From the IMG/VR virus record IMGVR_UViG_3300031857_016701, positions 1 to 64,000 of that record: DNA of 64,000 nt; one strand, given 5' to 3'. Both the position numbers and the translations under genes were made by a program. This document shows, in pieces, positions 1-22,023 of this stretch. The notes beneath the pieces were generated by a model. That model had not been told where the DNA came from. It saw only the letters and a list, made by a program, of their open reading frames with translations, and ran no database searches. Source of the stretch: a virus. Its lineage: Duplodnaviria > Heunggongvirae > Uroviricota > Caudoviricetes. Position 1 is the stretch's first letter. Each line of letters begins with the position of its first letter.

Positions 1-1
1 T

Positions 2-2912: not shown

Positions 2913-2936
2913 CTTTAACCGAAATTCTGATATTAT
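2909..2936 (+). promoter_or_regulatory. sigma70-like early promoter (TTGACT-16-TATTAT)
   Basis: -35 and -10 hexamers with a 16 nt spacer, 12 nt upstream of the DNA ligase ATG. Confidence 0.45.
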
Positions 2937-2947
2937 TTTTATAAGAT

Positions 2948-4226: not shown

Positions 4227-4420
4227 ATTATATGACTATTGTAAAAACATCAGAAATTATTGAATGGGTTAAAAACGCAGTGGAAAAGAAGATGATTAAG
4301 GAACTAAATATACCTAATGCTAAGGTTTATCTTAGCTGTGATCGTCCAAATCCTGATGTAATTCTTGAAACCAAGAACGCTGATGGTGATCTGCAAATTG
4401 TAAGGTTTCTCATTATATGA
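4211..4420 (+). CDS. hypothetical protein (69 aa)
   Basis: ORF in a coupled array. Confidence 0.3.
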   Translation: MDGKLNYMTIVKTSEIIEWVKNAVEKKMIKELNIPNAKVYLSCDRPNPDVILETKNADGDLQIVRFLII

Positions 4421-4498
4421 ATGTTGATACACTATATTATGTATTGTGTTTTATTGGATTAATTTTAATAATCAGTGGATTTTTTATTTTAACAAAAG

Positions 4499-4696
4499 AT
4501 GACAACCAATAAGTTTTTTTTAACTCTAGCACGTACTATTGACCATCGTGTAGGTCATACAGATGAATGCAAGCCTGATGTGCCTGTATTGCCTGTAAGT
4601 TATGCTCTTGCTAGTTTTTTCTTGAGATTTATCATTGTTCTGGTAAACTTTATTACATGCGCTTTCATTATCGCAAACATTATTCATCACTGGTAA
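4499..4696 (+). CDS. hypothetical small membrane protein (65 aa)
   Basis: C-terminal hydrophobic helix (LASFFLRFIIVLVNFITCAFIIANII). Confidence 0.3.
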   Translation: MTTNKFFLTLARTIDHRVGHTDECKPDVPVLPVSYALASFFLRFIIVLVNFITCAFIIANIIHHW

Positions 4697-4700
4697 AATT

Positions 4701-4892
4701 ATGAGTGATCCAAAATATTATTTAAAAATTAATCTACCACCAAATTTCAATGATTTGGATGCGGAAGTTATTAAAAAAGATTTAATGACTTATATCAATA
4801 GCAGAAATCAATGGGGTGCTTTATATGGACCCAAATCTTCCAAGAAGGGTATTACCATTGATAAAGTAATTTACAGAACCAATGAAGACTAA
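4701..4892 (+). CDS. hypothetical protein (63 aa)
   Basis: ORF in an early small-gene array. Confidence 0.3.
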   Translation: MSDPKYYLKINLPPNFNDLDAEVIKKDLMTYINSRNQWGALYGPKSSKKGITIDKVIYRTNED

Positions 4893-5100
4893 CCAAGAAG
4901 TAATTAGTAGACTACGACAGTTCACAAGTTACAACTGCAATAATTTGCTTGATGCAAAACTGTGTGAAGACATTCGTTATCTGTGTGATGAAGTGGAACG
5001 ATTCAGTAAAGAAATCGTTAAAGCTAACAATCATATGGATGAAGATCACATTACAATTCAACGTTATAAAAACAAACTAAGTAAGTATGAATCGTTTTAA
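4882..5100 (+). CDS. hypothetical protein (72 aa)
   Basis: ORF. Start overlaps the upstream stop. Confidence 0.3.
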   Translation: MKTNQEVISRLRQFTSYNCNNLLDAKLCEDIRYLCDEVERFSKEIVKANNHMDEDHITIQRYKNKLSKYESF

Positions 5101-5311
5101 TAAAATTATAGTGGGGGGGCTAACAGCAATTCTATTGACTGCTATGACAGTAGAACCACCAAAACTTAAGGTATACCTCATTATGTCATATAGAGGAAAC
5201 GATCTGGCAATTGAGAAGGTATATCTCAAAAAAGAAAATGCTCAGAAATATTGTGATATGTACAAAGAAAGTCATAATTATTCAGTAGAAGAACGTGAGC
5301 TAACAGAATGA
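5087..5311 (+). CDS. hypothetical protein with an N-terminal TM helix (74 aa)
   Basis: IIVGGLTAILLTAMTV hydrophobic segment. Confidence 0.3.
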   Translation: MNRFNKIIVGGLTAILLTAMTVEPPKLKVYLIMSYRGNDLAIEKVYLKKENAQKYCDMYKESHNYSVEERELTE

Positions 5312-5553
5312 AGAATTTATTGATTATTGCATTGTTGTCTACTGGTTGTACTAGTGGAATGTATCTAAGATATAGTTATAATAGAGCATTAGAAAATCTA
5401 CCACCCTGTAGTAGAGTACATGCAATTAACAACGACTATATTACTTATAGTATGATTGAAAATTCAACAAACAGTGTATATACTGTGCATACCAATTATT
5501 ATAGAGCCTATTATAATTGTGACGGTAAAATTATTAACACTACTAAAAATTGA
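5308..5553 (+). CDS. hypothetical secreted protein or possible lipoprotein (81 aa)
   Basis: Signal-peptide-like N-terminus ending LLSTGC-TSG. The lipobox is imperfect. Confidence 0.3.
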   Translation: MKNLLIIALLSTGCTSGMYLRYSYNRALENLPPCSRVHAINNDYITYSMIENSTNSVYTVHTNYYRAYYNCDGKIINTTKN

Positions 5554-5762
5554 TGAAAGAACAAATTGATTCTATCATCAAAAAACATTGTTTGAAAATG
5601 CAAGAAGTAGATAAAACCAAAAGCATTCCAATGACAGTAAAAGATTTGGATCATATCGTATATGATATGTACAGAGAATTGTATGGATTGCGGGATATAC
5701 GTTCAAGTAACTATAATCTAAATAATTTTACTGCAGATGACAAGAAAGGACATTGTTGTTAA
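5550..5762 (+). CDS. hypothetical protein (70 aa)
   Basis: ORF. ATGA overlap with the upstream gene. Confidence 0.3.
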   Translation: MMKEQIDSIIKKHCLKMQEVDKTKSIPMTVKDLDHIVYDMYRELYGLRDIRSSNYNLNNFTADDKKGHCC

Positions 5763-6046
5763 TTATGAAAAAGAAACAAACTCCAGTGTGTCAGAAAGTG
5801 GAACTAGACAATTGTTTTAGTTGCAAAGTTGTTGCGGGTAAAATACACAAGAAAAAGTGTGACATTGAAAGATGTAGTGAATGTGGTGGACAAAAGTTAA
5901 GTTGTGAATGTGAAGGACATGATAAACAATTTAGCAGATGGACAGGATTCTGGCCTGGAGAGTTAGAATGTAAGTCATTGAATATGGATTTGAATACCTT
6001 TTATATGACTGGTATGCATAAGATATTCTTTGTTAAACCTTCCTAA
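5753..6046 (+). CDS. hypothetical Cys-rich (zinc-finger-like) protein (97 aa)
   Basis: Multiple CxxC pairs (CFSC, CSEC, CEC). Confidence 0.3.
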   Translation: MLLIMKKKQTPVCQKVELDNCFSCKVVAGKIHKKKCDIERCSECGGQKLSCECEGHDKQFSRWTGFWPGELECKSLNMDLNTFYMTGMHKIFFVKPS

Positions 6047-6464
6047 CTTTGTCGAAGAATTCAGAATTATAATTGGTGGTCATGTAAACTTTAATTTCTT
6101 TATCATTTAATTTAAAGAATTTCTTGGCTCTTTTATATAATTTTGTACCAATTCCTTGTCTACGGTACTTTCTTTTTATATAAACCATAAATTCAAACTT
6201 AAAATTTGTAGATCTAGATGATTTACGTTCTTTAATTACTGCCCATCCTATACAAACACCGTTATCTTTAACGATAAAAACTCTATTTTTTACTTTATGA
6301 CGGATGTCACAACATTCAACATACAATGTATAGATTGAACCGCTTGTAACAAGTTTGCTACAAGATTTTTCCTCCTCTAAATTGACTTTTAAAGCATCTT
6401 TAGAATAGATTCGGATCATAATTGACCGATTAATAAATATAAAAACAAAACTGTTGACATTCAA
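6033..6464 (-). CDS. GNAT family N-acetyltransferase
   Basis: Acetyl-CoA motif A RRQGIGTKLYKRA. Size 143 aa. Lone minus-strand gene in a plus-strand block. Confidence 0.55.
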   Translation of the reverse strand: MNVNSFVFIFINRSIMIRIYSKDALKVNLEEEKSCSKLVTSGSIYTLYVECCDIRHKVKNRVFIVKDNGVCIGWAVIKERKSSRSTNFKFEFMVYIKRKYRRQGIGTKLYKRAKKFFKLNDKEIKVYMTTNYNSEFFDKVRKV

Positions 6465-6481
6465 ACTAAATATTACTATAC
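6453..6481 (+). promoter_or_regulatory. sigma70-like promoter (TTGACA-17-TATACT)
   Basis: Near-consensus hexamers 19 nt upstream of the ATG at 6500. Confidence 0.5.
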
Positions 6482-6499
6482 TGTTAAAAATTAAATAAT

Positions 6500-6733
6500 A
6501 TGGAAAAAGAACTAACTATTAAAGACAAGGTAACCACCCCAATCATTATTCAACACGATGACTTGAAGTTTGATGGTAAAAACATCACTATTCCAAGATA
6601 TTACATTGATTCACTCTGTGAATATATTAAGGATTTTAAGACTGAAGGAGAATTACAAGCTGATATTGAAGACTATCAAGCATTTCGTAGTTTTCTATAT
6701 GATGTTCAAGAATACAAGAATGGAGGAAACTAA
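6500..6733 (+). CDS. hypothetical protein (77 aa)
   Basis: ORF downstream of a strong promoter-like site. Confidence 0.35.
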   Translation: MEKELTIKDKVTTPIIIQHDDLKFDGKNITIPRYYIDSLCEYIKDFKTEGELQADIEDYQAFRSFLYDVQEYKNGGN

Positions 6734-6736
6734 TTT

Positions 6737-7321
6737 ATGGGTATGTATGATGACATAGTATGTAAATACCCCCTTCCCTTACCAGAAGATACTAAGGGAT
6801 ATATTCCTAATGGATTTCAAACCAAAGATTTTGACAATGCTTTGGATCATTATGAAATCCGTGAAGATGGCACACTATGGTTGCATGAATGTGAGCGAGA
6901 ATATACTGAAGGCGATCCAAACGGTAAAACATTCTTTGAAAAGTATGGAATGGTAAAAGTAACCAAAGATTGGTGGACGCATGTAAAAACAACCAGTACC
7001 ATACTCATGTATCATTATAGCAATTATAATGATGGACCATATGACTATTGGGTTGAATTTGAAATTGTATTTATTGACGGAGTTATTGACAAAATTAAAC
7101 TAATTAAGTTTGATGCCACTGATAACTCTAAAAGAAAAGAAAACGATAGACAATTCATCGAAGAACTTAAAAAGAACAAAGAGTTTGAATCTACTAATCT
7201 TTATAAATTAGTTATCAAACCATATAATAAAATTATTAGGTTTATCTGTAGATTGTTGTATTCTACTGGTTCATTTTTGATTACTAATGTTTGGAAATTG
7301 GAACGTAAACTAATTGTATGA
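6737..7321 (+). CDS. hypothetical protein (194 aa)
   Basis: ORF. Confidence 0.35.
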   Translation: MGMYDDIVCKYPLPLPEDTKGYIPNGFQTKDFDNALDHYEIREDGTLWLHECEREYTEGDPNGKTFFEKYGMVKVTKDWWTHVKTTSTILMYHYSNYNDGPYDYWVEFEIVFIDGVIDKIKLIKFDATDNSKRKENDRQFIEELKKNKEFESTNLYKLVIKPYNKIIRFICRLLYSTGSFLITNVWKLERKLIV

Positions 7322-7572
7322 AAGATCAAGATTCAATATTTTTAATTTGTGATTGTTTTAGTCATGGCCTTCTCGTAGAGAAGTTCAAAGATGAAGAAGA
7401 AGTATCTTTGAGTTTATTTGAAAGAGGATTAAATGGTAGAGTTTTGGGATGGTCAGAAAGACTAAGATGGTGTTGGCAAATATTACGATATGGTAAACCT
7501 TGGTCTGACTTTATAATTCTAAATACAGAAAACCAAAAACAATTAAAGGAATTTCTAAATGAATGTAAATGA
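7318..7572 (+). CDS. hypothetical protein (84 aa)
   Basis: ORF. ATGA overlap. Confidence 0.3.
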   Translation: MKDQDSIFLICDCFSHGLLVEKFKDEEEVSLSLFERGLNGRVLGWSERLRWCWQILRYGKPWSDFIILNTENQKQLKEFLNECK

Positions 7573-7744
7573 ATTTGAACGCACTAAGCCTGTAGTTACG
7601 ATGCAGAAGATCAATGACTTAATTAAGTTGATTGAAGATGAACGTGTAAAAACAGAAATTTTGTACAAAGATCGTGTGCGTAGTCTTGATGATATTAGCA
7701 TTTTACTAAAAGATATGAAAGCTAGTTTCAAGAAAGGTGAATAA
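7559..7744 (+). CDS. hypothetical protein (61 aa)
   Basis: ORF. Confidence 0.25.
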   Translation: MNVNEFERTKPVVTMQKINDLIKLIEDERVKTEILYKDRVRSLDDISILLKDMKASFKKGE

Positions 7745-8010
7745 TGAAATTTAAGAATTTTGAAGGAGTTGAATATACAGTAAATTATAACAAACCACAT
7801 TATAGGTTAAGAGCTTCTGGTTTATGTGATAATCCTGACATTAAAAATCCACAAATTCATGTAGATCCAACATTAATGACTCGTAGACAACTAAATGTAT
7901 TGATTGAAGAAGTATTTCATGCTCATTTGTATGATTTACCAGAAAAGAAAGCACGTAAATTTGCAGCCAATTTAGGCAAATTGATTTACAATAGATTTTT
8001 AAAAAAGTGA
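7744..8010 (+). CDS. hypothetical protein (88 aa)
   Basis: ORF. Confidence 0.3.
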   Translation: MKFKNFEGVEYTVNYNKPHYRLRASGLCDNPDIKNPQIHVDPTLMTRRQLNVLIEEVFHAHLYDLPEKKARKFAANLGKLIYNRFLKK

Positions 8011-8162
8011 TGAGAATTATAGATTTGACAGTTGGACTAATCATAGGTAGTCTATTCGCAATAGCAATTTTATTAATACTTACAATTTTCTTTGTCGTAT
8101 TAATTCCTTTTCTATTTTATTTTACAGTAAGAGAAGTATTAAAACAATTAACAAAAAGATAA
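8010..8162 (+). CDS. small hydrophobic membrane protein (50 aa). Not in the supplied ORF track because it is under 60 aa.
   Basis: ATG overlaps the upstream TGA (tgATG). Translates to MRIIDLTVGLIIGSLFAIAILLILTIFFVVLIPFLFYFTVREVLKQLTKR. It exactly fills the gap before the next gene at 8164. Confidence 0.35.
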   Translation: MRIIDLTVGLIIGSLFAIAILLILTIFFVVLIPFLFYFTVREVLKQLTKR

Positions 8163-8163
8163 T

Positions 8164-8637
8164 ATGAACAAAATAAGTGAAAGCATCATAGTTACATACG
8201 CAAAAGCATTACGTAGAATTCAAACAGAACAAGTAGATCCATATATTGAACTAATTGAGAAAGAACTAATTAAACTTTATCCCGAATTGAAAGATCGTGA
8301 AGATAATGCTTTAAATTGGGCATATGATATTCTTAATGCGGATTCAACTTCAGAAGTAATTGAAACTCTTGACAGAATTAAACAAATTCTTGACGAAGAA
8401 CACAAAGAAAAGTGGGTGTGTTCTATTTGTCATGAAAGTACATACAATGTAGATAGTGATTATCTCGCAGGTACTAATCATTTGTCTTGTGTTCTTACAG
8501 AAGAAATTGAAAGTCTAAATAAAAAAGGATCATTTACAAATATCAAAAATGAACTTGAATCTTTGAAAAATTACACTAAACAACTTGAAGAACAAATTCA
8601 AAAATTAGAAGGCAATTACAATGAACCTACAAACTAA
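8164..8637 (+). CDS. hypothetical protein with a C-terminal coiled coil (157 aa)
   Basis: ORF. Contains a CSICHES...SCV Cys/His cluster. Confidence 0.35.
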   Translation: MNKISESIIVTYAKALRRIQTEQVDPYIELIEKELIKLYPELKDREDNALNWAYDILNADSTSEVIETLDRIKQILDEEHKEKWVCSICHESTYNVDSDYLAGTNHLSCVLTEEIESLNKKGSFTNIKNELESLKNYTKQLEEQIQKLEGNYNEPTN

Positions 8638-8827
8638 TATTCAAGTATCGAACATTGATGTTCACGCATATAAACTACGCAAAGTATTTGATGATTATGG
8701 TATTATAACATCATATCCTATCAATCGTGAACAATTTGTAAAAGATGTACTTAAAGTTGCAACTTCGGATAAAGTGTATGTCTTCAATGGAGAAGGTACC
8801 TGCGTCAACGTAGAAATTTCTCTTTAA
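8621..8827 (+). CDS. hypothetical protein (68 aa)
   Basis: ORF. Confidence 0.25.
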   Translation: MNLQTNIQVSNIDVHAYKLRKVFDDYGIITSYPINREQFVKDVLKVATSDKVYVFNGEGTCVNVEISL

Positions 8828-8869
8828 AAGGTTGACATTTAGAAAATTTTAGCGTAGTCTTGTCATCCA

Positions 8870-9121
8870 ATGATTACTTGTGGATGTGGAAATGAAATTC
8901 ATGCCGAAAGGTTTGAATTGGGTTACAAAATCTGTTTGAATTGCGGTGACAAGGCTGCGTTAAAGAACAAAAAATACGGTTATATGCACTTTGGTCATAA
9001 AACCGCCGGTAGTATCGTCGTCACTTCAAAACGAGCCGTAGAAAATTACCAAAAAGTATCCAAAAGAATGAATAAAGGTAGCAATATGGGTTATGCTAGC
9101 CGTTTGAGCACTTCATTCTAA
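8870..9121 (+). CDS. TraR/DksA-family C4 zinc-finger protein
   Basis: CGCGNEIHAERFELGYKICLNC matches the DksA/TraR CxxC-x17-CxxC finger. Confidence 0.5.
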   Translation: MITCGCGNEIHAERFELGYKICLNCGDKAALKNKKYGYMHFGHKTAGSIVVTSKRAVENYQKVSKRMNKGSNMGYASRLSTSF

Positions 9122-9133
9122 TATTTATACTAT

Positions 9134-9382
9134 ATGACTGCATCATTCTATAAGACAGTATATCAACGCAAATTCAACGAATTGCCACGATGGAAAAAGC
9201 TGGCAATCGTAGAAGATAGTGAAAGAAACAATTGGAGTGGTCTATTAACAGAATTTATTAAAGCCGTAATTGAAGAAGCAGAAAAGGATTACGCAAATTC
9301 CAAATCAACCGTTGTATCTCCATCTGGTCAATACGAAACAGTTCCACAAACGACTTCAAATTCTTTTAAGAAAAAGAATTGA
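9134..9382 (+). CDS. hypothetical protein (82 aa)
   Basis: ORF. Confidence 0.3.
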   Translation: MTASFYKTVYQRKFNELPRWKKLAIVEDSERNNWSGLLTEFIKAVIEEAEKDYANSKSTVVSPSGQYETVPQTTSNSFKKKN

Positions 9383-9415
9383 CTTTTTCTAAAATCATGA
9401 TAAATTGATTTCAAG

Positions 9416-9949
9416 ATGAATGTTTTGGATCATTTGAAGAGTTCGTCAGTTGACGATATTAAGTCCTATTGTAAGTCCACTTCCATTAACGCAGGTGTCG
9501 CAATGATGCATGTTAATGGTGACTTTAATCTATCTACTCTTGTTCGTAACGCCAATTTCTTTGGTTTTAAGGAAGCATTTTATGTAGGTGGTAGCAAGCA
9601 ATGGGATCGTCGTGGTACTGTTGGTACTCATCACTATACTGACTTAAAACATATTAAGACTGAAGAAGACTTTGTTACTTATATTAAGGATAATAATTAT
9701 ACACTAATTGCTGTAGAAAACAATATTCCCAAGTATAGTGACAAGACTGTATCTATCTTCAATCAATGGGTATTTACTGGTGTTGATAAGCCAATGTTTG
9801 TGTTTGGCGAAGAAAAGAGTGGATTGAGCGATTATATTCTTGACAACGCAGAATTTATCGTAACCATTCCAGCTTTTGGAAGCGTTCGTTCACTGAATGT
9901 TGGCACCACCAGCGGAATCGTGATGGCACATTACAGAAATAATTTTTGA
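9416..9949 (+). CDS. SpoU/TrmH-family (SPOUT) RNA 2'-O-methyltransferase
   Basis: SPOUT motifs: NxxxxxRxAxxFG (NLSTLVRNANFFG), FVFGEEKSGLS, SLNVGTTSGIVM. Confidence 0.6.
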   Translation: MNVLDHLKSSSVDDIKSYCKSTSINAGVAMMHVNGDFNLSTLVRNANFFGFKEAFYVGGSKQWDRRGTVGTHHYTDLKHIKTEEDFVTYIKDNNYTLIAVENNIPKYSDKTVSIFNQWVFTGVDKPMFVFGEEKSGLSDYILDNAEFIVTIPAFGSVRSLNVGTTSGIVMAHYRNNF

Positions 9950-9956
9950 AAAACCC

Positions 9957-9984
9957 TTGACGTTTTCCAAATCTAAGGTATAGT
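9957..9984 (+). promoter_or_regulatory. sigma70-like promoter (TTGACG-16-TATAGT) upstream of the NAD island
   Basis: Hexamers in a 114 nt intergenic gap before the NMNAT-Nudix gene. Confidence 0.4.
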
Positions 9985-10063
9985 TATGAATGTAGGGGAG
10001 ATAAGATTCAATAAGTCTTCACTACAATAAATCAAAAAAACATAGAAAGGTATAGATAAAACT

Positions 10064-11020
10064 ATGAAAGAAAAAGTTACAAAGGCTACTGATGTAGCTG
10101 TAATCGTTGGTCGTTTCCAGGTTAATGAACTCCATGAAGCTCATATTGACCTAATCACTTCAGTTCTGAATAAACATGACCGTGTGCTTTTGTTCTTGGG
10201 AAATAGCACTATCCGTAATACACTCAACAATCCTCTTGATTATCGTGCAAGACGTACAATGATTGCTGATAAGTTCCCCACAGTAGAGATTCATTATATC
10301 AATGATAATCCTTCTGATACTGCATGGACCAAGAATCTTGATAAGTTGATTGGTGAACAGTTGTTGCCAATGCAGACTGTTACACTATATGGTTCCCGTG
10401 ATAGTTTCTTGAAGTGTTATACTGGTAAGTACACTACTTGTGAGCTAGAAGCAACCACTTTTATTAGTGGTACAGAAGTTCGTCGTCGTGTATGTAACAA
10501 TTATCCTCCCACTGCAGATTATAGGGCTGGTATGATTGCTGCTACTGCATATCGTTTTCCTACAGCATTTCAGACTGTTGATATTGCTGTTGTAAATGAT
10601 AAGGGTGAACTGCTTTTGGCTCGTAAACCAGAAGAAAAGAAGTGGCGGTTTATTGGTGGATTTAGTGATCCTGCTTCTGTTTCTCTTGAAGAAGATGCTA
10701 AACGGGAAGTACAGGAAGAAGCTGGTGTAGAAGTTGGTAATATCACTTATCTTGGTTCTACACTTATCAATGACTGGCGTTACCGTGGAGAAATTGATAA
10801 GATTAAGACTGCATTGTTTGTTGCCAAGTATGTATTTGGCAAACCGGAGGGTGCAGATGATGTTGCAGAAGTGAAGTGGGTATCTATTAACAATTTGACT
10901 AAAAATGATATTGTTGAAACCCACCATGTTCTGATTGATATGTTCAATGAAAAGTTTGGAGCCAACCGGGAACTTCAGGAAAAGTTCTTCAAGCCAAATT
11001 TTGATGGAAAAATGCCTTGA
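10064..11020 (+). CDS. natV: bifunctional NMN adenylyltransferase / Nudix ADP-ribose pyrophosphatase (NatV/NadM-Nudix type)
   Basis: N-terminal nucleotidyltransferase with a GRFQ...H...H (HxGH-type) motif. C-terminal Nudix box (GGFSDPASVSLEEDAKREVQEEAGV). Confidence 0.75.
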   Translation: MKEKVTKATDVAVIVGRFQVNELHEAHIDLITSVLNKHDRVLLFLGNSTIRNTLNNPLDYRARRTMIADKFPTVEIHYINDNPSDTAWTKNLDKLIGEQLLPMQTVTLYGSRDSFLKCYTGKYTTCELEATTFISGTEVRRRVCNNYPPTADYRAGMIAATAYRFPTAFQTVDIAVVNDKGELLLARKPEEKKWRFIGGFSDPASVSLEEDAKREVQEEAGVEVGNITYLGSTLINDWRYRGEIDKIKTALFVAKYVFGKPEGADDVAEVKWVSINNLTKNDIVETHHVLIDMFNEKFGANRELQEKFFKPNFDGKMP

Positions 11021-11097
11021 CTTCGGGTGGAGTCTAGGGTAAAGTATTAAAAGTAAAGATTAAGGTACAGATAAAAATCATTACAGAAAGAAAAATT

Positions 11098-12495
11098 ATG
11101 AATAAAAACATTTGTTTGACTACGGATTCTTATAAGTTGAATCATTGGAATCAATATCCCAAGGGCACAGAAAAGGTTTATAGTTACTTTGAATGCCGTA
11201 AGGGATCTAAGTTTGCTGAAACTCCTTTCTTTGGACTTCAGTATATTATTAAGAACCACCTTGAAGGTGTTGTTGTGACCCGTCAGAAGATTGAGAATGC
11301 TGCTAAGGTGTGTAAGGCACATTTTGGTGATGAAAAGTATTTCAACCGTGAAGGTTGGGAATATGTTCTTAACAATTATGAAGGCAAGTTGCCTGTTGTT
11401 ATCAAGGCAGTTGAAGAAGGAACTGTTGTTCCTATCAACAATGTGCTTATGACTATTGAAAATACTGGCGGTGAAAAGACTGCTTGGTTGACCAATTTCC
11501 TTGAAACTATTTTGTCACAGGTTTGGTATCCTATTACAGTTGCTGCTTTGTCCCGTGAAGTGAAGGTTAATATCAAGGAATATCTTGATTTGACCAGTGA
11601 TGGTGGATTGCTTAACTTTGGTCTTCATGACTTTGGTTTCCGTGGAGCTAGCTCTTGGGAATCTGCTGGTATCGGGGGGGCTGCCCACTTGATTAACTTC
11701 TTGGGAACTGATACTGTTGTTGCTATGGAAGTGGCAATGAATTACTATAACGCTAATCTTGACGGTTTGGCATATAGTGTTGCTGCTACTGAACACTCTG
11801 TTATGACCGCACTTGGTAAGAATGGTGAAGAACAGGTTGTTGAGAATCTGTTGAATGAGTATCCTACTGGTATTCTGTCTGTTGTATCTGACAGCTATGA
11901 TATCTACAACTTTGTTGACAATATTGTTGGAAACAAGTTTAAGGTCCGTATTCTTGCCCGTGATGGTGTATTTGTAGTTCGTCCGGATTCTATTACTCCT
12001 ACTCACCCAACTCCTGAAGCAGAAATGGTTTGGATTATGCATAGTCTTTGGGATAACTTTGGTGGCACTATTAACAGCAAGGGTTATTGTGTTATCAATC
12101 CAAAGGTTCGTGTTCTTTGGGGTGACGGAATTGATATTGAAGGAATCAAGAAGATTCTGTATGCTGTTACCAAGGCTGGATTTGCAACTGAGAACATTGC
12201 TTGTTTTGGTATGGGTGGTGGATTGTTGCAGAAGGTTAACCGTGATACTCAGCGTTGTGCTTTTAAGTGTAGTGCTCAGTATCGTGATGGTCAGTGGTAT
12301 GACATTCAGAAGAATCCCAAGGATGTTTCCAAGGTTTCTAAGAAGGGTATTCTCAAGTTGATTAAGGTTGATGGTGAATTTGTTACTGTCAATGAAAATG
12401 AACCGGGAGAAGATTATTTGAAGGTTGTTTTTGAGAATGGTGTACTTGTCAAGGAAATTGATTTTGATACCGTTCGTAAAAATGCCGCTTTGTAA
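11098..12495 (+). CDS. nadV: nicotinamide phosphoribosyltransferase (NAMPT/NadV family; may act as a Namat-type enzyme)
   Basis: 465 aa with strong NAMPT-family similarity throughout (GLHDFGFRG, GTDT). Adjacent to the NMNAT gene. Confidence 0.8.
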   Translation: MNKNICLTTDSYKLNHWNQYPKGTEKVYSYFECRKGSKFAETPFFGLQYIIKNHLEGVVVTRQKIENAAKVCKAHFGDEKYFNREGWEYVLNNYEGKLPVVIKAVEEGTVVPINNVLMTIENTGGEKTAWLTNFLETILSQVWYPITVAALSREVKVNIKEYLDLTSDGGLLNFGLHDFGFRGASSWESAGIGGAAHLINFLGTDTVVAMEVAMNYYNANLDGLAYSVAATEHSVMTALGKNGEEQVVENLLNEYPTGILSVVSDSYDIYNFVDNIVGNKFKVRILARDGVFVVRPDSITPTHPTPEAEMVWIMHSLWDNFGGTINSKGYCVINPKVRVLWGDGIDIEGIKKILYAVTKAGFATENIACFGMGGGLLQKVNRDTQRCAFKCSAQYRDGQWYDIQKNPKDVSKVSKKGILKLIKVDGEFVTVNENEPGEDYLKVVFENGVLVKEIDFDTVRKNAAL

Positions 12496-12542
12496 TTGAC
12501 AACAAAAAGGTTTACGGTTATCCTTTAAAACCGTTTTTATTT

Positions 12543-12998
12543 ATGATTACAAATATTGATATAAACATTTTTGATTGTGACGCACACGGTATTATTCATC
12601 AAGCCAATTGTCAAAATACCATGCAAAGTGGTATTGCCAGACAAATTAGGGACAAGTATCCGGAGGCATATGAAGCAGATTGTAAAACAGTTGCGGGTGA
12701 TATTAAAAAACTGGGTACATTCAGTTGGGTAAAGACACATGATGATAAGTATATCTACAATTGTTATAGCCAATTTAGGTATGGAAAAGAACAACGTCAT
12801 ACAAATTATGAAGCAATTTATACTGGGTTGTCATCCATTAAAGACCACGCAAGCAGTATTGAGTTGACTTCTTTAAGTTTGCCATATAATATGGGATGCG
12901 CATTGGGTGGAGGGTCTTGGAATATTGTCAGAGCTATAATTCAAGATGTTTTTTATGATTCTGATATCAACCTTTTCATCTGCAAATATAACCCCTAA
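12543..12998 (+). CDS. macro-domain protein (ADP-ribose binding/processing)
   Basis: Macro signatures IIHQANCQNTMQSGIARQI and PYNMGCALGGGSWNIV (Gly-rich ADPR loop). Size 151 aa. Confidence 0.65.
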   Translation: MITNIDINIFDCDAHGIIHQANCQNTMQSGIARQIRDKYPEAYEADCKTVAGDIKKLGTFSWVKTHDDKYIYNCYSQFRYGKEQRHTNYEAIYTGLSSIKDHASSIELTSLSLPYNMGCALGGGSWNIVRAIIQDVFYDSDINLFICKYNP

Positions 12999-13001
12999 TT
13001 T

Positions 13002-13964
13002 ATGAAGACTATCAAGTTATTTTCAGGAACCAGTAATCTACCATTGGCACAGAAGATTTCACAAAATCTGAATGAACCTCTTGGTAAGATTTATCACCAC
13101 AAGTTTCCAAGTGGTGAAACCTATTGTCAATTCAAGGAAAATATCCGTGGCAGTGATGTATTTTTGATTCAAGGTATTACCAATCCAGCAAATGAAAACT
13201 TGATGGAATTGCTTGTAATGTCAGATGCTGCTAGACGGGCTAGTGCAGAACGTATTACTGCGGTAATTCCTTATTTTGGTTATGCTCGTCAAGACCGTAA
13301 GGATAAGAGCCGTGTTCCTATTACTGCTCGTCTTGTAATGGATTTGATTGCTACTGCTGGTATTGATAGGGTGGTGACTATGGATTTGCATAGTCCACAA
13401 GTGGGTGGATTTACTAATCTGCCATTTGATCATCTTACATTTGAACCAGTATTGAGTGAATATTTTAGGACCAAGTATCATTCATTAGATTTTAGGGATA
13501 ATGTTGTATTGATGGCACCGGATGTTGGTGCGGTTAAACGAGTGGAAAAGTATGCGGACTTGTTAAAGTGTGATTTTGGTTTTATCAGTAAGAAGCGTGT
13601 AAGTGATACCAAGGTAGAACTACAAAATGTTGTGGGCAATGTAAAAGATAAACATGTAGTTATTGTTGATGACCTCACTGAAAGTCTGGGAACAATGGTT
13701 CAAGCAGCAAAAGAATGTAAGAAACAAGGTGCTGTCAAAGTAACTTGTTCAGTAACTCATGGTTGTTTGACGGAGACAGGTATTCATAGATTGGCAGAGT
13801 CTATCAATGTAATTGATGAATTTATTCATAGTAATACAACAAATACATGGGGTAGTATTGGATTTAAGCCATCTAATGTTACTGAATTGGATGTAAGCAA
13901 CTTATTTGCTAAGGCTATTCGTAGTATCAACAAGAATGAAAGTGTAAGTGAATTATTCGTATGA
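13002..13964 (+). CDS. prs: ribose-phosphate pyrophosphokinase (Prs) homologue. The ribose-5-P loop is diverged, so it may be an ADP-ribose pyrophosphokinase (Adps-like).
   Basis: Near full-length colinearity with Prs (NLMELLVMSDAARRASAERITAVIPYFGYARQDRK, DLHSPQVGGF). The canonical DDxIDTGGT loop reads DDLTESLGT. Confidence 0.75.
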   Translation: MKTIKLFSGTSNLPLAQKISQNLNEPLGKIYHHKFPSGETYCQFKENIRGSDVFLIQGITNPANENLMELLVMSDAARRASAERITAVIPYFGYARQDRKDKSRVPITARLVMDLIATAGIDRVVTMDLHSPQVGGFTNLPFDHLTFEPVLSEYFRTKYHSLDFRDNVVLMAPDVGAVKRVEKYADLLKCDFGFISKKRVSDTKVELQNVVGNVKDKHVVIVDDLTESLGTMVQAAKECKKQGAVKVTCSVTHGCLTETGIHRLAESINVIDEFIHSNTTNTWGSIGFKPSNVTELDVSNLFAKAIRSINKNESVSELFV

Positions 13965-14491
13965 AATATATTGAAGCTCCTACTAAGTATAAAAATAAAC
14001 CAGGTATACCCTCTCTATTTTTAGGAGGTGGAATTAGTTCATGCAAAGATTGGCAATCCAAGTTGGTTGAAAAGTTGACGGATTATAATGTTACTATTTA
14101 TAATCCCCGTCGTAACGACTTTGATATCAACAATCCAAAAGCTAGTGAAGAACAAATCAAGTGGGAACATAAGTATCTACATGATGTAAATATTCTAGTG
14201 TTTTACTTTGCAGAAGAAACACTATGTCCAATTACATTGTTTGAATTGGGTGCTGCATTGGAACGAAACACTTATGCTACAATCAAACAAGATATTTTGG
14301 TATATTGTGAACCAGAGTATAAACGTAAGTTTGATGTAGAACTACAAATCAAGCTTGCAGTGAAAAATGCTAATCAACTATCTAAAAATAATGATGTTGC
14401 AGATGATTTGTGTGTATCATTTCATGATGATTATAGTGATTTTGTAGATGAATTGAAAGCAATTGTTGATATTGCTCAAGTTTATGTTTAA
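13961..14491 (+). CDS. nucleoside 2-deoxyribosyltransferase / DNPH1 (Rcl)-like N-glycosidase family protein
   Basis: FLGGGISS matches the YFxGxIxGG phosphate-binding motif. FELGAAL matches the catalytic YELG Glu motif of DNPH1/NDT. Size 176 aa. Confidence 0.5.
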   Translation: MKYIEAPTKYKNKPGIPSLFLGGGISSCKDWQSKLVEKLTDYNVTIYNPRRNDFDINNPKASEEQIKWEHKYLHDVNILVFYFAEETLCPITLFELGAALERNTYATIKQDILVYCEPEYKRKFDVELQIKLAVKNANQLSKNNDVADDLCVSFHDDYSDFVDELKAIVDIAQVYV

Positions 14492-14539
14492 CAAATATAA
14501 TATTGATTTAGTATCTATATGTTGATATAGTATTAACGT

Positions 14540-14851
14540 ATGAATAAATTAGTAATTATTGGATTGTTGTTGTCGGTTACAAATCTAAATGCGGGTATCT
14601 TTGCCAAGAAAAAGTCTGGTAGAACATGTATTGTATGTAAAGAACAAATGGCTTGGACAGATGGACATTTACTTACATTCCAGAATTATTTGGATGAAGA
14701 TGGTAAACATAAAGTGGTAATCGTCAAAACAGACAATTGTGTAAAAGAAGTATATGCTAACAAAGATTTGTATCTAAAAAAGAAACCATCCATTTGGTCT
14801 ATTAAAGATAATAAACATGGTGTAAGCATCAAAGAATTATTTAAAAACTAA
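14540..14851 (+). CDS. hypothetical secreted protein (signal peptide)
   Basis: MNKLVIIGLLLSVTNLNAG N-terminus. Sits downstream of a TTGATT-17-TATAGT promoter-like site. Confidence 0.35.
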   Translation: MNKLVIIGLLLSVTNLNAGIFAKKKSGRTCIVCKEQMAWTDGHLLTFQNYLDEDGKHKVVIVKTDNCVKEVYANKDLYLKKKPSIWSIKDNKHGVSIKELFKN

Positions 14852-14852
14852 T

Positions 14853-15269
14853 ATGGAAAAACTAAATCGTAAAGGGTTTTTCTCCACCCTATTTGGAGGA
14901 ATCGCAGGTGTTGTTGCTGGTTCAACTGTTAAAGCATCAGAACCTATTGTACCAACACCACCAGTTGAAAATGTTGTTACTTGTGACAAATTGATATTCA
15001 CAACTAGTGATGGTGCTAGTTGTGTAATGCAGTTTAGAGACAATGATAACTTTGAAATACGTGTAAATAATAGTGAGAATATTTCAATCAATATTTGTTC
15101 ACCACTAAATAAACCAACTACAATCAAAGCAGAATCTTCACCAAACTCATATGAGTATAGACAACACTCATTTTATAATGAACCACGACAACGATTGGTA
15201 ATTGCTTCAAATGGTAATATTGGATTGGGCACTCATACTCCTACAGCAAAACTTGATATTTGTGGTTGA
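14853..15269 (+). CDS. hypothetical exported protein with an RK-FF / Gly-rich hydrophobic N-terminus
   Basis: NRKGFFSTLFGGIAGVVAGS leader. Confidence 0.3.
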   Translation: MEKLNRKGFFSTLFGGIAGVVAGSTVKASEPIVPTPPVENVVTCDKLIFTTSDGASCVMQFRDNDNFEIRVNNSENISINICSPLNKPTTIKAESSPNSYEYRQHSFYNEPRQRLVIASNGNIGLGTHTPTAKLDICG

Positions 15270-15519
15270 TAAGAATCATTGTTGTTATATAGTTATTTGT
15301 GGGGACAACACCCTCTATTGTGGTTATAGTAATGATGTTGAAAAACGAATTAGTAACCATAATAGGGGGTGTGGTGCTAAATATACTAAGACACGATTAC
15401 CAGTTAGATTAGTATATACAGAATGTTTTGATAGTAAGAGTGAAGCAATGAAGAGAGAGTATCAAATCAAACAATTGACCCGTCAACAAAAGTTAAAACT
15501 AATAAGTGAAAAACAATAA
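15202..15519 (+). CDS. small GIY-YIG nuclease (UPF0213/YhbQ-like). True start uncertain; a GTG at 15262 would remove the overlap.
   Basis: CYIVICGDNTLYCGYSNDVEKRISNHN is a GIY-YIG core, with a downstream conserved E (KSEAMKRE). Confidence 0.5.
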   Translation: MLQMVILDWALILLQQNLIFVVDKNHCCYIVICGDNTLYCGYSNDVEKRISNHNRGCGAKYTKTRLPVRLVYTECFDSKSEAMKREYQIKQLTRQQKLKLISEKQ

Positions 15520-16006
15520 AGCATTTACATTAATAGAATTGGTATTAGCCATAACCATATTGCTTGGTATTATTGGTGCAATTGTTATTAACTATGATAG
15601 TTTGGTGGGCAATACCAGATATTTTGAAGCTAGAGAAAACTTAAAGACACTATTGATTAATCTCAAACATCAATCAGCATTTCAACAAAAGGAATTTGAA
15701 CTTACATTTGATGAAAATTATAATATGTACAGTACATTTGACGATTTCTATTTATTGGATGCTGTCACAAATGACTTGAAGATACTTGAATCAAGTTCTA
15801 CCAAAATTGTGTTTTTTCTTGACGGAAGCGTACAAGAGAGTTATATTGTTACTAGCAACTTGGAGGGAACCATCACCAACAAATTTATTATTAATGTTAT
15901 TGGTGGGGTAAATTACGAGGGTACAACAAATATTGTTTTAGAAAAAAATGAATCTAATTTACAAACAGACCAACAACCAGAAGTTCCACGTATTGACTCC
16001 GAATAA
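15506..16006 (+). CDS. type IV pilin / pseudopilin-like protein with a class III (prepilin) signal
   Basis: N-terminus MKNNKA-FTLIELVLAITILLGIIGAIV: a basic leader, Phe+1, Glu+5, then a hydrophobic helix. Size 166 aa. Confidence 0.6.
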   Translation: MKNNKAFTLIELVLAITILLGIIGAIVINYDSLVGNTRYFEARENLKTLLINLKHQSAFQQKEFELTFDENYNMYSTFDDFYLLDAVTNDLKILESSSTKIVFFLDGSVQESYIVTSNLEGTITNKFIINVIGGVNYEGTTNIVLEKNESNLQTDQQPEVPRIDSE

Positions 16007-16028
16007 TCATTTAGTTGGTGAACTTATT

Positions 16029-16184
16029 ATGGATGTTGACGGTTATTTCTATTTTTGGCCAAGTAACGATGGTTGCTGGCCGTCACATATAATGCGTTCT
16101 ATTGCTAACAAGTTGGATGATATCAACAAGCCTTGGAATGATGAAGTCACTGAATATTTCGATAAAGAAAAGATTATACTATGA
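16029..16184 (+). CDS. hypothetical small protein (start trimmed to MDVDGYF)
   Basis: ORF. The track version starts at 15948 and overlaps the pilin-like gene. Confidence 0.25.
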   Translation: MDVDGYFYFWPSNDGCWPSHIMRSIANKLDDINKPWNDEVTEYFDKEKIIL

Positions 16185-16672
16185 AAGCGATTATTGCGAT
16201 GGCAGAAAATAGGGTTATAGGCAAGAATGGTGGATTGCCATGGCCAAGTATCAAGGAGGATTTTAAGCACTTTAAAGAATTTACAATGGGTAATACACTT
16301 ATTGTGGGTAAAAATACATTTGATACATTACCACTTCTAAAAAATAGAGAATGTCTTGTACTAGTCAAAGAAGACAAAATAATGGCAGCGAATCCAAATC
16401 AATATCTAGTAAACAATAATTCTATGACGGGTAAACTGATTACGATGACAGATATTGAATCTTATAGTCAATTTAGAAAAGACTATTTGATTGTTGCTGG
16501 TGGTGCTAAAACTTATATTAATTTGTTACCATACATTACAGAGTTTTATGTTACGCATGTAAATGGTAAATATGATGGTGATACATTTATGCCACCATTT
16601 GAAGATTTGTTTACACATAAAGAAGTTGTAAAAGAATTTGACCTACACAAAGTTATAATGTATACTAAATGA
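16181..16672 (+). CDS. folA: dihydrofolate reductase
   Basis: MKAIIAMAENRVIGKNGGLPW N-terminal DHFR signature. Size 163 aa. Immediately upstream of thymidylate synthase. Confidence 0.8.
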   Translation: MKAIIAMAENRVIGKNGGLPWPSIKEDFKHFKEFTMGNTLIVGKNTFDTLPLLKNRECLVLVKEDKIMAANPNQYLVNNNSMTGKLITMTDIESYSQFRKDYLIVAGGAKTYINLLPYITEFYVTHVNGKYDGDTFMPPFEDLFTHKEVVKEFDLHKVIMYTK

Positions 16673-16673
16673 T

Positions 16674-17816
16674 ATGAATAGTTACGAAGAACAATATATC
16701 AATCTACTTTCAGAAATCTACAACGGGGGCACTTATTCCAAAAATAGAACCGGAATAAACACTCGTAAAATTTGGGGGGCTCAAATTCATGTAGATTTAT
16801 TGCATGAAGGATTTCCTCTACTTACCACAAAGAAAATGCACTGGAAGAGTGTAGTGCATGAACTATTGTGGATGATTAAAGGAGATACTAACATTCAGTA
16901 TCTTCTAAAGAATGGTGTTACATTCTGGACAGAATGGCCCTATCAAAAGTATCTTAACCATTGCAAAACACTCACTGAACCCGATTATGATGTTCATATC
17001 GAGGATCTTGAAAAAAATTGTGTGCGTGAAATGACACAAAAAGAATTTGAACAAGAAATCATCAATAACGATGAATTTGCCAAAAAGTGGGGTAGCATTG
17101 GACAATATGGTTATGGTGGAATGTGGAGAAACTTTCCACATCGTATTAACCCAATTGGTCAAAATAATGGTGATCACATGATCGTCAAAGGGTGGTCTGT
17201 TGAAACCGTGGATCAACTTAAAAATGCAATTAATGAACTAAACACTAATCCAGATAGTCGCCGGATTATCATCACTGCATGGCATCCGTATCATAGTAAT
17301 AACCGAGAAGATGCTCTATTGCCAGCCTGTCACAATTATATTCAGTTTGGTACTGAAGAATTGACACTAGAAGAAAGATTTAATATTTTTTCAAATGGAT
17401 GGAATGTAGAAGAATCAAAAAATGAGTGGAATAAAAATGGATTTACAGATTATGATTCCCTTCTTACAGATCATTATATTCCAAAATATCGTTTGAATTG
17501 TTACTTTAATATGAGAAGTAATGATGTACCACTTGGTTTACCATACAACATCGCTTTTTATGCTCTATTTACTCACTTGATGGCTCATTGTTTAAATATG
17601 ATTCCAAGTCAATTAGTTTATAGTGGTGCTGATGTTCATATCTATGAAAACCAACAAGAAGGAATTGTAGAACAATTGACTAGAACTCCCGGTAAATTGC
17701 CTAAGTTAGTTCTTAAACCAGGATGTCCTACCAATTTGTTTGATATTAAGTTTGACCACATTGATATTGTGGACTATAATCCTCAATCACACATTAAAAT
17801 GCCTGTAGCAGTATGA
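16674..17816 (+). CDS. thyA: thymidylate synthase (ThyA family) carrying two large insertions (380 aa)
   Basis: RTGINTRKIWG...FPLLTTKK...HELLWMIKGDTN. Active-site LPACH Cys. RSNDVPLGLPYNIAFYAL, with Asn at the dUMP-specificity position. Confidence 0.7.
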   Translation: MNSYEEQYINLLSEIYNGGTYSKNRTGINTRKIWGAQIHVDLLHEGFPLLTTKKMHWKSVVHELLWMIKGDTNIQYLLKNGVTFWTEWPYQKYLNHCKTLTEPDYDVHIEDLEKNCVREMTQKEFEQEIINNDEFAKKWGSIGQYGYGGMWRNFPHRINPIGQNNGDHMIVKGWSVETVDQLKNAINELNTNPDSRRIIITAWHPYHSNNREDALLPACHNYIQFGTEELTLEERFNIFSNGWNVEESKNEWNKNGFTDYDSLLTDHYIPKYRLNCYFNMRSNDVPLGLPYNIAFYALFTHLMAHCLNMIPSQLVYSGADVHIYENQQEGIVEQLTRTPGKLPKLVLKPGCPTNLFDIKFDHIDIVDYNPQSHIKMPVAV

Positions 17817-17998: not shown

Positions 17999-18201
17999 AA
18001 ACAAATTACTACGTTATAATTTTAGATCAAAACAACAATCTATGTGTTGATTCATTAGGCGAATGTTTCAGTGAAGACGCTTCATTAACTGAAGCAAATA
18101 AGTATCGTAAGAAACATAAAGCAGATGTACTCTGGACTTGCACAGAAAGTGCATTAAAAACACTAAAAGAATCACTTAAAAAATATGATAACCAACTATA
18201 A
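17995..18201 (+). CDS. hypothetical protein (68 aa)
   Basis: ORF. Confidence 0.3.
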   Translation: MKTNYYVIILDQNNNLCVDSLGECFSEDASLTEANKYRKKHKADVLWTCTESALKTLKESLKKYDNQL

Positions 18202-18565
18202 TTTATTTCTCGATGACAACCGCATTCCAACGAATGTCACTTGGGTTAATATTCCAAAAGATCAACATTACTCTGTGGTAAGAAATTATCAAGAGTTTGT
18301 TGACTTGATTACACTTCGTGGACTTCCTAAGTTTGTAACTTATGACCATGATTTGTCAGACTGCCACTATGGTCATGGTTTGAATAACGATGATATTCCA
18401 TATGACAAGTATACAGAAAAGACTGGATATGATTGTGCTAAATGGCTTGTGGAATATTGTATGAATAAGGGTGTTAAACATCCACCATATATGGTACATT
18501 CTATGAATCCCGTGGGTAAACAAAATATTATTAGTTATGTGGAATCGTATAACAAATCTGTTTAA
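18185..18565 (+). CDS. hypothetical small Rossmann/receiver-like domain protein (126 aa)
   Basis: Conserved-looking FLDDNR ... YDHDLSD ... DCAKWLVE ... HSMNPVG pattern. Confidence 0.3.
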   Translation: MITNYNLFLDDNRIPTNVTWVNIPKDQHYSVVRNYQEFVDLITLRGLPKFVTYDHDLSDCHYGHGLNNDDIPYDKYTEKTGYDCAKWLVEYCMNKGVKHPPYMVHSMNPVGKQNIISYVESYNKSV

Positions 18566-21246: not shown

Positions 21247-22023
21247 TTATTTTAAATTTAGACATTTAAATCCACGATATAATTTTATATGTCCATTTAT
21301 TAATTGTGATAAACATTTTTTATTTAAATTATAATTTTTTCTTAAATTATACATAGTATCTTTTATAATATCTTTTGTATTTTGATTTTCTAAAATATAT
21401 ATTGTTTTATCATAAGATGAATTTTTTGATCCTCTTCTTTGTTTACTGAATAATTCTTTTGTTTCATTTGAATGTTTTTTACCAAAATTAGGTGCATTTT
21501 TACCTATCATTTCCATTCTTTTATTTTTTAATTTTTGTTTATGGTTTTTACTTAATTTTTTGCCTTTATGTAATTTTGAAATTTTTTCTTTCATTTCAAT
21601 TGTCCAATCCACTCTTCCGGCCAAAAATGTTTTATTATAACATAAATTTTTATTTAATTTAGCTATATTTAAATAATTTTGTTCTGTTTTTAATAGATCA
21701 GATTCTTTACAATATTGGATAATAATCCATTCAAAATTATCTTCACCATATTTATTCCACGCATTTTGAAGATGTAAATTGTGGTGTATATTTTTGTTTA
21801 AATAATATTTATGTTTATACCATCTTCCATAATTACCGTTGATGTTTTTAGAACTGCCAATATAATATTTCCCATCAATTTTACTAATTATTTTATAAAT
21901 TCCTATAGATTTTATTATATCGTTCTCTTGCTTTAAATCTTTCTTTTTCCACATTTTTCCAATAAGATTGCATTCTATATTTTCTATATCGGTTGAGTTT
22001 TTGATCTTTAGTTTCATTTTCAT
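21247..22023 (-). CDS. GIY-YIG homing endonuclease (I-TevI/Seg-like)
   Basis: GIYKIISKIDGKYYIGSS ... NIHHNLHLQNAWNKYGEDNF GIY-YIG core. Lys-rich C-terminal DNA-binding region. Extremely AT-rich gene. Confidence 0.7.
   Translation of the reverse strand: MKMKLKIKNSTDIENIECNLIGKMWKKKDLKQENDIIKSIGIYKIISKIDGKYYIGSSKNINGNYGRWYKHKYYLNKNIHHNLHLQNAWNKYGEDNFEWIIIQYCKESDLLKTEQNYLNIAKLNKNLCYNKTFLAGRVDWTIEMKEKISKLHKGKKLSKNHKQKLKNKRMEMIGKNAPNFGKKHSNETKELFSKQRRGSKNSSYDKTIYILENQNTKDIIKDTMYNLRKNYNLNKKCLSQLINGHIKLYRGFKCLNLK

Follow-up and report, generated by a model that had tools for sequence, protein, structure and literature searches.

A predicted class I phosphoribosyl pyrophosphate synthase encoded beside putative NAD+ salvage genes of a T4-like phage

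The 64,000-nucleotide stretch of DNA analysed here (the window) corresponds to positions 1 to 64,000 of the IMG/VR virus record IMGVR_UViG_3300031857_016701 and belongs to a T4-like phage, with genes for a family-B DNA polymerase (phrog_262, 596 bits), a clamp loader, RNA and DNA ligases, DHFR and a thymidylate synthase family protein, and a G+C content of about 30%. An open reading frame (ORF) with an ATG start at 13002-13964 (+) encodes a 320-amino-acid (aa) protein (phage Prs) related to ribose-phosphate pyrophosphokinase (Prs), the synthase of phosphoribosyl pyrophosphate (PRPP). It lies in a co-oriented block together with genes for a fusion of nicotinamide mononucleotide adenylyltransferase and Nudix domains (NMNAT-Nudix), for a protein of the NAMPT family, for a Macro domain protein and for a protein resembling nucleoside 2-deoxyribosyltransferases (NDT-like), as listed in Table 1. 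When the 5.3-kb cassette was compared by megablast with a collection of 50,697 phage records, no match was obtained, and the phage thus has no close sequenced relative there.

Analysis of the 320-aa protein with Pfam detected the domains Pribosyltran_N (PF13793, 1.7e-50, 170 bits), Pribosyl_synth (PF14572, 3.4e-19, 70 bits) and Pribosyltran (PF00156, 2.2e-13, 50 bits), and the NCBIfam models NF002320 and TIGR01251 were matched with 354 and 339 bits, above their respective cut-offs of 297 and 113. Solved Prs chains of the PDB aligned with residues 1-319 of the phage protein (E-values from 1e-74 to 1e-58). The class I enzymes used for comparison, those of Escherichia coli (7XMU and 6ASV), Bacillus subtilis (1DKR) and Thermus thermophilus (Prs II, 7PN0 and 5T3O) and human PRPS1, have the same length and domain order and are 39-43% identical to it over the full length; BLASTP with E. 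coli Prs gave 42% identity and 239 bits. These end-to-end matches confirmed the colinearity with class I Prs that had been pointed out in a preliminary description of the gene made from its sequence.

The AlphaFold2 model of phage Prs (predicted local distance difference test score, pLDDT, of 87.2) includes the C-terminal helices (residues 299-310 and 316-319) and could be superimposed along its full length on solved Prs structures. Foldseek searches of the PDB with this model gave template modelling (TM) scores of 0.84-0.91 to the Thermus, E. coli, human and B. subtilis enzymes, and the top 50 matches were Prs/PRPS chains only (TM 0.82-0.91 over 307-320 columns). In a neighbour-joining tree of 137 sequences, distance-based and without bootstrap, the phage clade nested within class I Prs beside the cellular enzymes of the Planctomycetes-Verrucomicrobia-Chlamydiae (PVC) group, and the sequences of the related ADP-ribose pyrophosphokinases (Adps) formed long branches outside class I Prs.

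The residues required for binding of ribose-5-phosphate (R5P) and for catalysis were located by alignment. In E. coli Prs as solved by cryo-electron microscopy (7XMU), R5P is hydrogen-bonded by D170, D220, D221, T225 and T228 (PMC9232217). These residues correspond to D174, D223, D224, S228 and T231 of phage Prs, in such a way that the sole change is from Thr to Ser. E. coli F35, R99 and H131 of the ATP site are F35, R99 and H130 in the phage protein, and the catalytic Lys/Arg pair of the flexible loop (K197 and R199 in B. subtilis) is conserved as K197 and R199. The RF-loop YARQDRKDKSRVPI, R49 and ESVSELF, the motif of allosteric site 1 and the C-terminus that reads ESxSxLF in class I enzymes, are also canonical, and the C-terminal alpha11-alpha12 module is kept, with LFAKAIRSINKNESVSELF in phage Prs aligned to MLAEAIRRISNEESISAMF in E. 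coli. Therefore, sequence, predicted structure and active-site residues together assign the phage protein to class I Prs, and synthesis of PRPP is its predicted activity.

The preliminary description had considered the R5P-binding loop to be rewritten. This loop (DDLTESLGT) does differ from the E. coli sequence DDMIDTGGT, three of its last five residues being exchanged (Glu for Asp, Ser for Thr and Leu for Gly) so that Glu-Ser takes the place of the usual Asp-Thr, but "rewritten" is too strong a word for them. The first two changes are conservative, and E. coli D224, which became E227 in phage Prs, does not figure in the list of R5P ligands; the third affects a position that varies in Prs, with Gly in the E. 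coli enzyme, Cys in human PRPS1 and Ala in that of Thermus. Moreover, Thermus Prs II (7PN0/5T3O), the best match by both sequence and fold, has the loop DDEISTAGS, with Ser at the Asp position.

The distribution of loop variants was analysed in two sets of homologues. The 120 closest ones were 68-99% identical to phage Prs and all metagenomic, and they came from phage-like or virus-catalogue contigs in every case where the context was read. Glu-Ser was kept in 119 of them, and in the other one the loop was not located. The most frequent variants were DDLTESLGT (65 sequences) and DDLTESCGT (44 sequences), the latter with only conservative differences from human DDMADTCGT, and in the remaining 10 either the seventh position was A, G or S or the third and fourth varied (I, M or A). 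The wider set was drawn from a library of 1.84 billion proteins and comprised the 150 cluster representatives closest to phage Prs, 128 of which had a loop that could be read. At the position of E. coli D224 these had D in 83 cases, S in 18, E in 15 and other residues in 12; 35% were thus without Asp, a share that is probably inflated because the set was chosen for its closeness to phage Prs. The T225 position was occupied by T (108), S (19) or G (1), and the G226 position by A (63), G (46), C (13), L (3) or others (3). The pattern [TS]E[ST] is still present in representatives with 47-57% identity; the more distant representatives of the TES type (P0124-P0136), known as protein-library entries, may be viral or cellular.

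Among the 185,579 species genomes of GTDB, the best match (49% identical) was the Prs of a Coraliomargarita (Verrucomicrobiota), in which the loop reads DDMTETAGT and the gene is flanked by lpxD and a DegT aminotransferase gene, with bamA and skp upstream, on a 3.06-Mb chromosome. Therefore, an apparently ordinary chromosomal Prs can have Glu in the place of Asp. The preliminary description had counted a common occurrence of the ESLGT change in ordinary Prs as evidence against its main reading, and such evidence was obtained in part, with this Glu and the non-Asp share of the wider set. In other PVC-group genomes the loops were DDLTSTAGT, DDMTSTAGT and DDLVTTAGT. The phage clade seems to have branched off from PVC-type cellular Prs, and its loop, DD[LM]TES[LCAG]GT, is a lineage signature that is predicted to keep the chemistry, as the series of carboxylate, hydroxyl, small or variable residue and Gly-Thr is retained.

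A different activity had been put forward on the basis of the loop. In NAD+ reconstitution pathway 1 (NARP1), Adps converts ADP-ribose (ADPR) into ADPR pyrophosphate (ADPR-PP), which a neighbouring enzyme of the NAMPT family (Namat) joins to nicotinamide to yield NAD+; Adps proteins are Prs homologues that were for long annotated as Prs (10.1101/2024.02.11.579819). The departure of the phage loop from the commonest form, DTGGT, had been taken as the sign of an acceptor pocket changed for ADPR. Phage Prs does share with Adps the superfamily fold, the location in phages and the proximity of a NAMPT-family gene, which is two genes away much as adps lies beside namat, and residues F35, R96, D98, R99, H130, D174, K197, R199, D223 and D224 are common to both. 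The comparison was made by sequence alignment and against the published structure description (PMC13586617), with the Adps of Vibrio phage ICP1, Bacillus phage SPbetaL1 and Escherichia phage Bas63 as references. Activity was measured for the first two and was shown for Bas63 through deletion of its NARP1 genes; a PDB search with SPbetaL1 Adps returned only Prs chains, the PDB set searched containing no Adps structure.

The alignment placed phage Prs with E. coli Prs, as the model had done. BLASTP against the three Adps gave partial alignments of 24-28% identity (49-63 bits), in contrast to the values obtained with the E. coli enzyme. The Adps are shorter (272-293 aa) and lack an N-terminal strand-helix, the N-terminal FSGxSNxxLA element and the C-terminal helices, all of which are present in phage Prs. 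Loss of alpha11-alpha12 has been called a defining signature of Adps proteins, whose allosteric sites are degenerate (PMC13586617). Their loops read DDICDGAAS, DDLSSFGGT and DDICDGGRT, always followed by a capping Phe and with Gly or Phe instead of a hydroxyl residue at the position of E. coli T225, whereas phage Prs has S228 at this position and M232 after the loop. Two further motifs of Adps, TG[DE]I in the hairpin and PHS, are missing from the phage protein, which has DLHS at the latter. In the ICP1 Adps structures, ADPR spans the former ATP/ADP and R5P sites of Prs, and the loop (C215-S220) is re-used for the triphosphate of the ATP donor, the adenine of which is capped by Phe221 and Phe223 (PMC13586617). 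An Adps identity deduced from the loop thus starts from a wrong structural premise, because in ICP1 Adps the loop holds the ATP donor. With all five R5P ligands kept, a loop unlike those of Adps and no Adps feature found, the proposed change of acceptor was not supported.

The identity of the partner enzyme bears on the same question. A Namat partner is found nearby in 97% of Adps, with the motif GSxPhixPhixPhiTRD (for the motif, PMC12774641), and in the three reference phages it is adjacent or one gene away. The NAMPT-family protein of the window, whose presence had been correctly noticed before, has the two Pfam domains of the family and reaches 545 bits with NF006629. Its identity is 42% with the Nampt encoded by Vibrio phage nt-1 (Straboviridae), used as a stand-in for that of phage KVP40, to which we take nt-1 to be related, compared to 34-36% with the three Namats. 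At the motif site it reads GMGGGLLQKVNRD (GGGLLQ), like GMGGGLLQQLDRD of nt-1, and not GxGS[YF]TYQYxTRD; the three Namats have GIGSYTYQYVTRD, GIGSFTYQYNTRD and GVGSYTYQYMTRD at this adenine-clamp motif (GSxTxQxxTRD). By this comparison the neighbouring protein is a Nampt and not a Namat, and phage Prs has no Namat partner; BLASTP of the window proteins revealed no second Prs-like or NAMPT-like gene. In addition, the Nmnat of the alternative pathway, NARP2, is present, and Osterman et al. found no phage with both pathways (10.1101/2024.02.11.579819). Since phage Prs lacks every Adps trait that sequence or model can display, an Adps identity was rejected and is regarded as very improbable.

The assignment of the NMNAT-Nudix protein is supported by NCBIfam models of bifunctional NMNAT/Nudix enzymes, which match both halves, all below cut-offs, and the best PDB match, the Francisella NadM-Nudix structure, is weak (whole-chain E-value 3.7e-08, neither half being significant alone). 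With a Nampt-type partner and an NMNAT-Nudix fusion immediately upstream of it, the window holds a NARP2-type pair as judged from these homologies; the Nampt is of the same type as in KVP40 and its relatives, and the cassette differs from NARP2 as described in the addition of prs downstream, plus the Macro and NDT-like genes. Neighbouring Prs-like and NAMPT-like phage genes are now often read as NARP1, for which gene order or one odd loop is insufficient. The features that discriminate Prs from Adps are full length with the C-terminal helices, the hydroxyl residue of the loop, and the Nampt or Namat motif of the partner.

Table 1. Positions of phage Prs, its neighbours and the loci used for comparison (window coordinates unless another contig is named)
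Feature	Position	Strand	Evidence or remarks
SpoU methylase	9416-9949	+	co-oriented block
NatV/NadM-like NMNAT-Nudix	10064..11020	+	Pfam NUDIX 4e-14; NCBIfam bifunctional models; PDB 2QJT
Nampt/NadV-type nicotinamide phosphoribosyltransferase, predicted PRPP consumer	11098..12495	+	NAMPT_N and NAPRTase domains; NF006629
Macro domain protein, TARG1/OARD1- and DarG-like	12543..12998	+	Pfam Macro 1e-7; PDB OARD1 4e-7
Prs, predicted class I ribose-phosphate pyrophosphokinase (PRPP synthase), phage-borne clade	13002..13964	+	Pfam, NCBIfam, BLASTP, AlphaFold2, Foldseek
R5P-binding loop DDLTESLGT, residues 223-231	13668..13694	+	aligns to E. coli D220-T228
Nucleoside 2-deoxyribosyltransferase-like protein (PF15891, Nuc_deoxyri_tr2)	13961..14491	+	Pfam 9e-21
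NAPRTase (PncB-type)-PNK/HAD-TES-type Prs-YopX-OGFr_N-like-WGR-PARP-like cassette	L055 5622-11513		contig of 365 kb
Same cassette	L061 5541-11586		contig of 214 kb
Adps of ICP1	L066:11542-12384		reference
Adps of SPbetaL1	L006:35312-36130		reference
Adps of Bas63	L007:12747-13628		reference

With respect to gene organization, the stop codon of the Macro gene lies 3 nt before the start of prs and the start of the NDT-like gene overlaps the stop of prs by 4 nt, a tight spacing that suggests co-expression of the three genes. No intergenic terminator was detected inside the cassette by a terminator scan, and a scan for sigma-70 promoters yielded 41 sites versus 31.8 ± 4 expected, too weak an excess to define an operon. 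The Macro protein also matched the NCBIfam DarG model (3e-13, below its cut-off).

The conservation of this neighbourhood was analysed in 21 related viral loci in which Prs is at least 64% identical. Nampt was encoded upstream of prs on the same strand in 19 of them, usually together with NatV, and one of the two exceptions has just 2 kb of upstream sequence. The NDT-like gene followed prs in 12 loci (L037-L043, L047-L049, L051 and L052), and a Macro gene was present within 8 kb in some. More distant Prs of the TES type, 50-56% identical and with the loops DDLTESAGT and DDMTESGGT, were encoded on two jumbo-phage contigs of 214 and 365 kb, where the partner is a PncB-type nicotinate phosphoribosyltransferase (NAPRTase; Table 1). 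The Prs lineage is thus tied to two different pyridine phosphoribosyltransferases that consume PRPP, as expected of a PRPP supplier. The class I enzymes of cells are linked to housekeeping genes, in contrast to this phage-encoded Prs with its Nampt and NMNAT-Nudix neighbours. The "prs" of Microcystis phage MaAM05 (MW495066.1, 40% identical) was tried as a further phage comparator and dropped; its region is probably bacterial chromosome within a 274-kb "phage" record because its neighbours are dinB and trpG.

These data agree with the second option of the preliminary description, a true Prs that raises the PRPP available to NadV, which is supported by the family assignment, the R5P residues and the synteny with Nampt. 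The preferred reading is that the 320-aa protein is a genuine full-length class I PRPP synthase and most likely the PRPP source for the NAD+ salvage enzymes of the phage, to which a probability of roughly 80% is given. NARP2 is a two-gene pathway (Nampt plus Nmnat) that draws on the PRPP of the host (10.1101/2024.02.11.579819), and its cost or toxicity has been attributed to the fact that it starts from PRPP (10.1101/2024.02.11.579819; PMC13464706). Phage Prs would attach the beta,gamma-diphosphate group of ATP to R5P at C1, yielding PRPP and AMP, and this PRPP would pass to the phage Nampt, in such a way that NAD+ reconstitution of the NARP2 type would neither starve on nor drain the PRPP of the host. 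A Prs of its own would thus remove from the phage a known weakness of NARP2, the dependence on host PRPP and its drain.

An alternative destination of the PRPP has to be considered, in which the synthase of this large lytic phage serves as a general nucleotide supply for DNA replication, through salvage and de novo synthesis of purines and pyrimidines, and its adjacency to nampt reflects the clustering of auxiliary genes. The same + strand block of the window contains the genes for DHFR, the thymidylate synthase family protein and the RNA and DNA ligases. Moreover, two loci with TES-type Prs (L059 and L063) have no Nampt within 8 kb, their flanks being occupied by SpoU, NDT-like and RNA ligase genes, and the ten larger flanking ORFs scanned (within about 5 kb) include no phosphoribosyltransferase; L052 likewise lacks a Nampt within 8 kb. 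However, the upstream Nampt of the 19 closer loci, usually with NatV, and the separate association with a PncB-type NAPRTase in two further lineages speak against a general supply, and no purine or pyrimidine phosphoribosyltransferase was found beside prs in any locus examined. A role in general nucleotide supply is consequently considered unlikely.

Several observations weigh against the assignment of phage Prs as a PRPP source for Nampt. E. coli D37, which makes a hydrogen bond to the nucleotide in the ATP site and is D or N in canonical enzymes, is Ser37 in phage Prs. This is one of 13 alignment columns that are at least 90% conserved in the phage clade and yet unlike the canonical consensus; clade-fixed residues near active or regulatory sites are S37 (D/N37), G135 (Q136 in E. 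coli), T138 (F139) and E227/S228. Allosteric site 2 is also changed: the residues that bind ADP at this site in E. coli Prs, E133, F147, S149 and R178 (PMC9232217), are P132, T146, E148 and E182 in the phage protein. The PRPP synthase activity of the clade is itself predicted by comparison with Prs. Synteny with Nampt is no proof of metabolic channelling, and the PRPP could equally serve nucleotide salvage. Finally, the ADPR pyrophosphatase activity that might be ascribed to the Nudix domain upstream is an assumption from distant homology.

The same substitutions could be understood as those of a Prs with altered properties, either insensitive to feedback or with a wider acceptor range, due to the clade-specific changes in the flag region, site 2 and the R5P loop. 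The 13 columns, with S37, G135, T138, E227 and S228 among them, and the replacement of the E. coli site-2 ligands would fit such an enzyme, and as the site-2 residues are replaced the regulation of phage Prs may differ; Adps provides an example of phages being able to strip regulation from the Prs fold (PMC13586617). Nevertheless, ESVSELF, R49 and the RF-loop remain canonical, and no sequence feature points to a particular alternative acceptor. In addition, variation at the site-2 positions is likewise seen in cellular enzymes, for example in Coraliomargarita Prs, and deregulation was for this reason demoted to a rival of low confidence. Altered properties are on the whole doubtful, and an ordinary PRPP synthase chemistry directed to NAD+ salvage remains the preferred reading.

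The phage protein thus belongs to a known enzyme class, and what is mildly new is the recurrence of the NatV-Nampt-Prs arrangement and of the parallel NAPRTase-Prs arrangement, neither of which was found described in the literature searched. The carriage of Prs beside NARP2-type or NAPRTase genes in freshwater T4-like and jumbo phages is apparently widespread and undescribed.

The composition of the cassette also suggests, as a tentative idea that is less likely than not, that this T4-like/jumbo phage lineage extended NARP2 to a self-sufficient, closed NAD+ recycling cassette made of Macro, NatV, Prs and Nampt. The Macro domain, similar to OARD1/TARG1 and DarG, may free ADPR, and the Nudix half of NatV may split it into AMP and R5P. 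Hydrolysis of ADPR by the Nudix domain of KVP40 NatV is said to have been reported by Lee and colleagues in 2017. Prs would then re-activate R5P to PRPP and, with its TES loop and altered site 2, may escape the feedback control of the host; Nampt and NMNAT would rebuild NAD+, closing the cycle from both products of NADases. The NDT-like protein might contribute further R5P through a nucleotide N-glycosidase activity, a guess made from its family membership only. If real, a closed cycle from ADPR through R5P, PRPP and nicotinamide mononucleotide (NMN) to NAD+ would be a third phage route for the recycling of NADase products, reaching the same end as NARP1 by canonical chemistry and with the host PRPP spared, and the NAPRTase-Prs cassette of the jumbo phages would be its nicotinate version.

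In that jumbo-phage cassette, a PARP-like enzyme adjoins the NAD+ salvage genes. A larger NAD+ cassette was observed at positions 1-16966 of a related contig of 56.8 kb (L003, JGI 3300042691), whose Prs is 75% identical to the query. It encodes a Nudix protein, an NMNAT, a Nampt, a NADAR protein, two PTH2-like proteins, Prs, a second Nudix protein, His_Phos_1, Metallophos and Macro proteins and an Anti-Pycsar Apyc1-like protein, and from these domain assignments it looks like an anti-defence island around NAD+/ADPR metabolism.

Other genes of the window were noted during the analysis. A 166-aa protein encoded at 15506-16006 (+) begins with MKNNKAFTLIELVLAITILL, the N-terminal methylation motif of type IV pilins and pseudopilins (PF07963, 2.7e-5), and such a prepilin-like protein is unexpected for a T4-like phage. 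At 18185-18565 (+), a 126-aa protein has a cREC_REC "cyclic-phosphate processing receiver" domain (PF20274, 1.2e-18), and its gene shares the block with those for the RNA ligase (1186-2238) and the SpoU methylase. The thymidylate synthase family protein (16674-17816, +; 380 aa) covers the whole 266-position Pfam profile with insertions of about 110 aa; its versions in the related viral loci are 37-42% identical, compared to 74-79% for the adjacent DHFR. Genes resembling those of homing endonucleases (GIY-YIG plus NUMOD3, and HNH) are interspersed with the auxiliary genes of the window, as is one for a small GIY-YIG protein that stands alone, at 21247-22023 (-), 22429-23070 (+) and 15202-15519 (+). 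Finally, sugar-modifying genes, which include those for a GDP-mannose 4,6-dehydratase, a nucleotide-sugar epimerase and several glycosyltransferases, are located at about 23700-24900 and at 36000-48000 (-) and at 56700-59700 (+). The block at 36-48 kb has a G+C content of 21-25%, versus about 30-38% elsewhere, and may be a separately acquired island for glycan synthesis.

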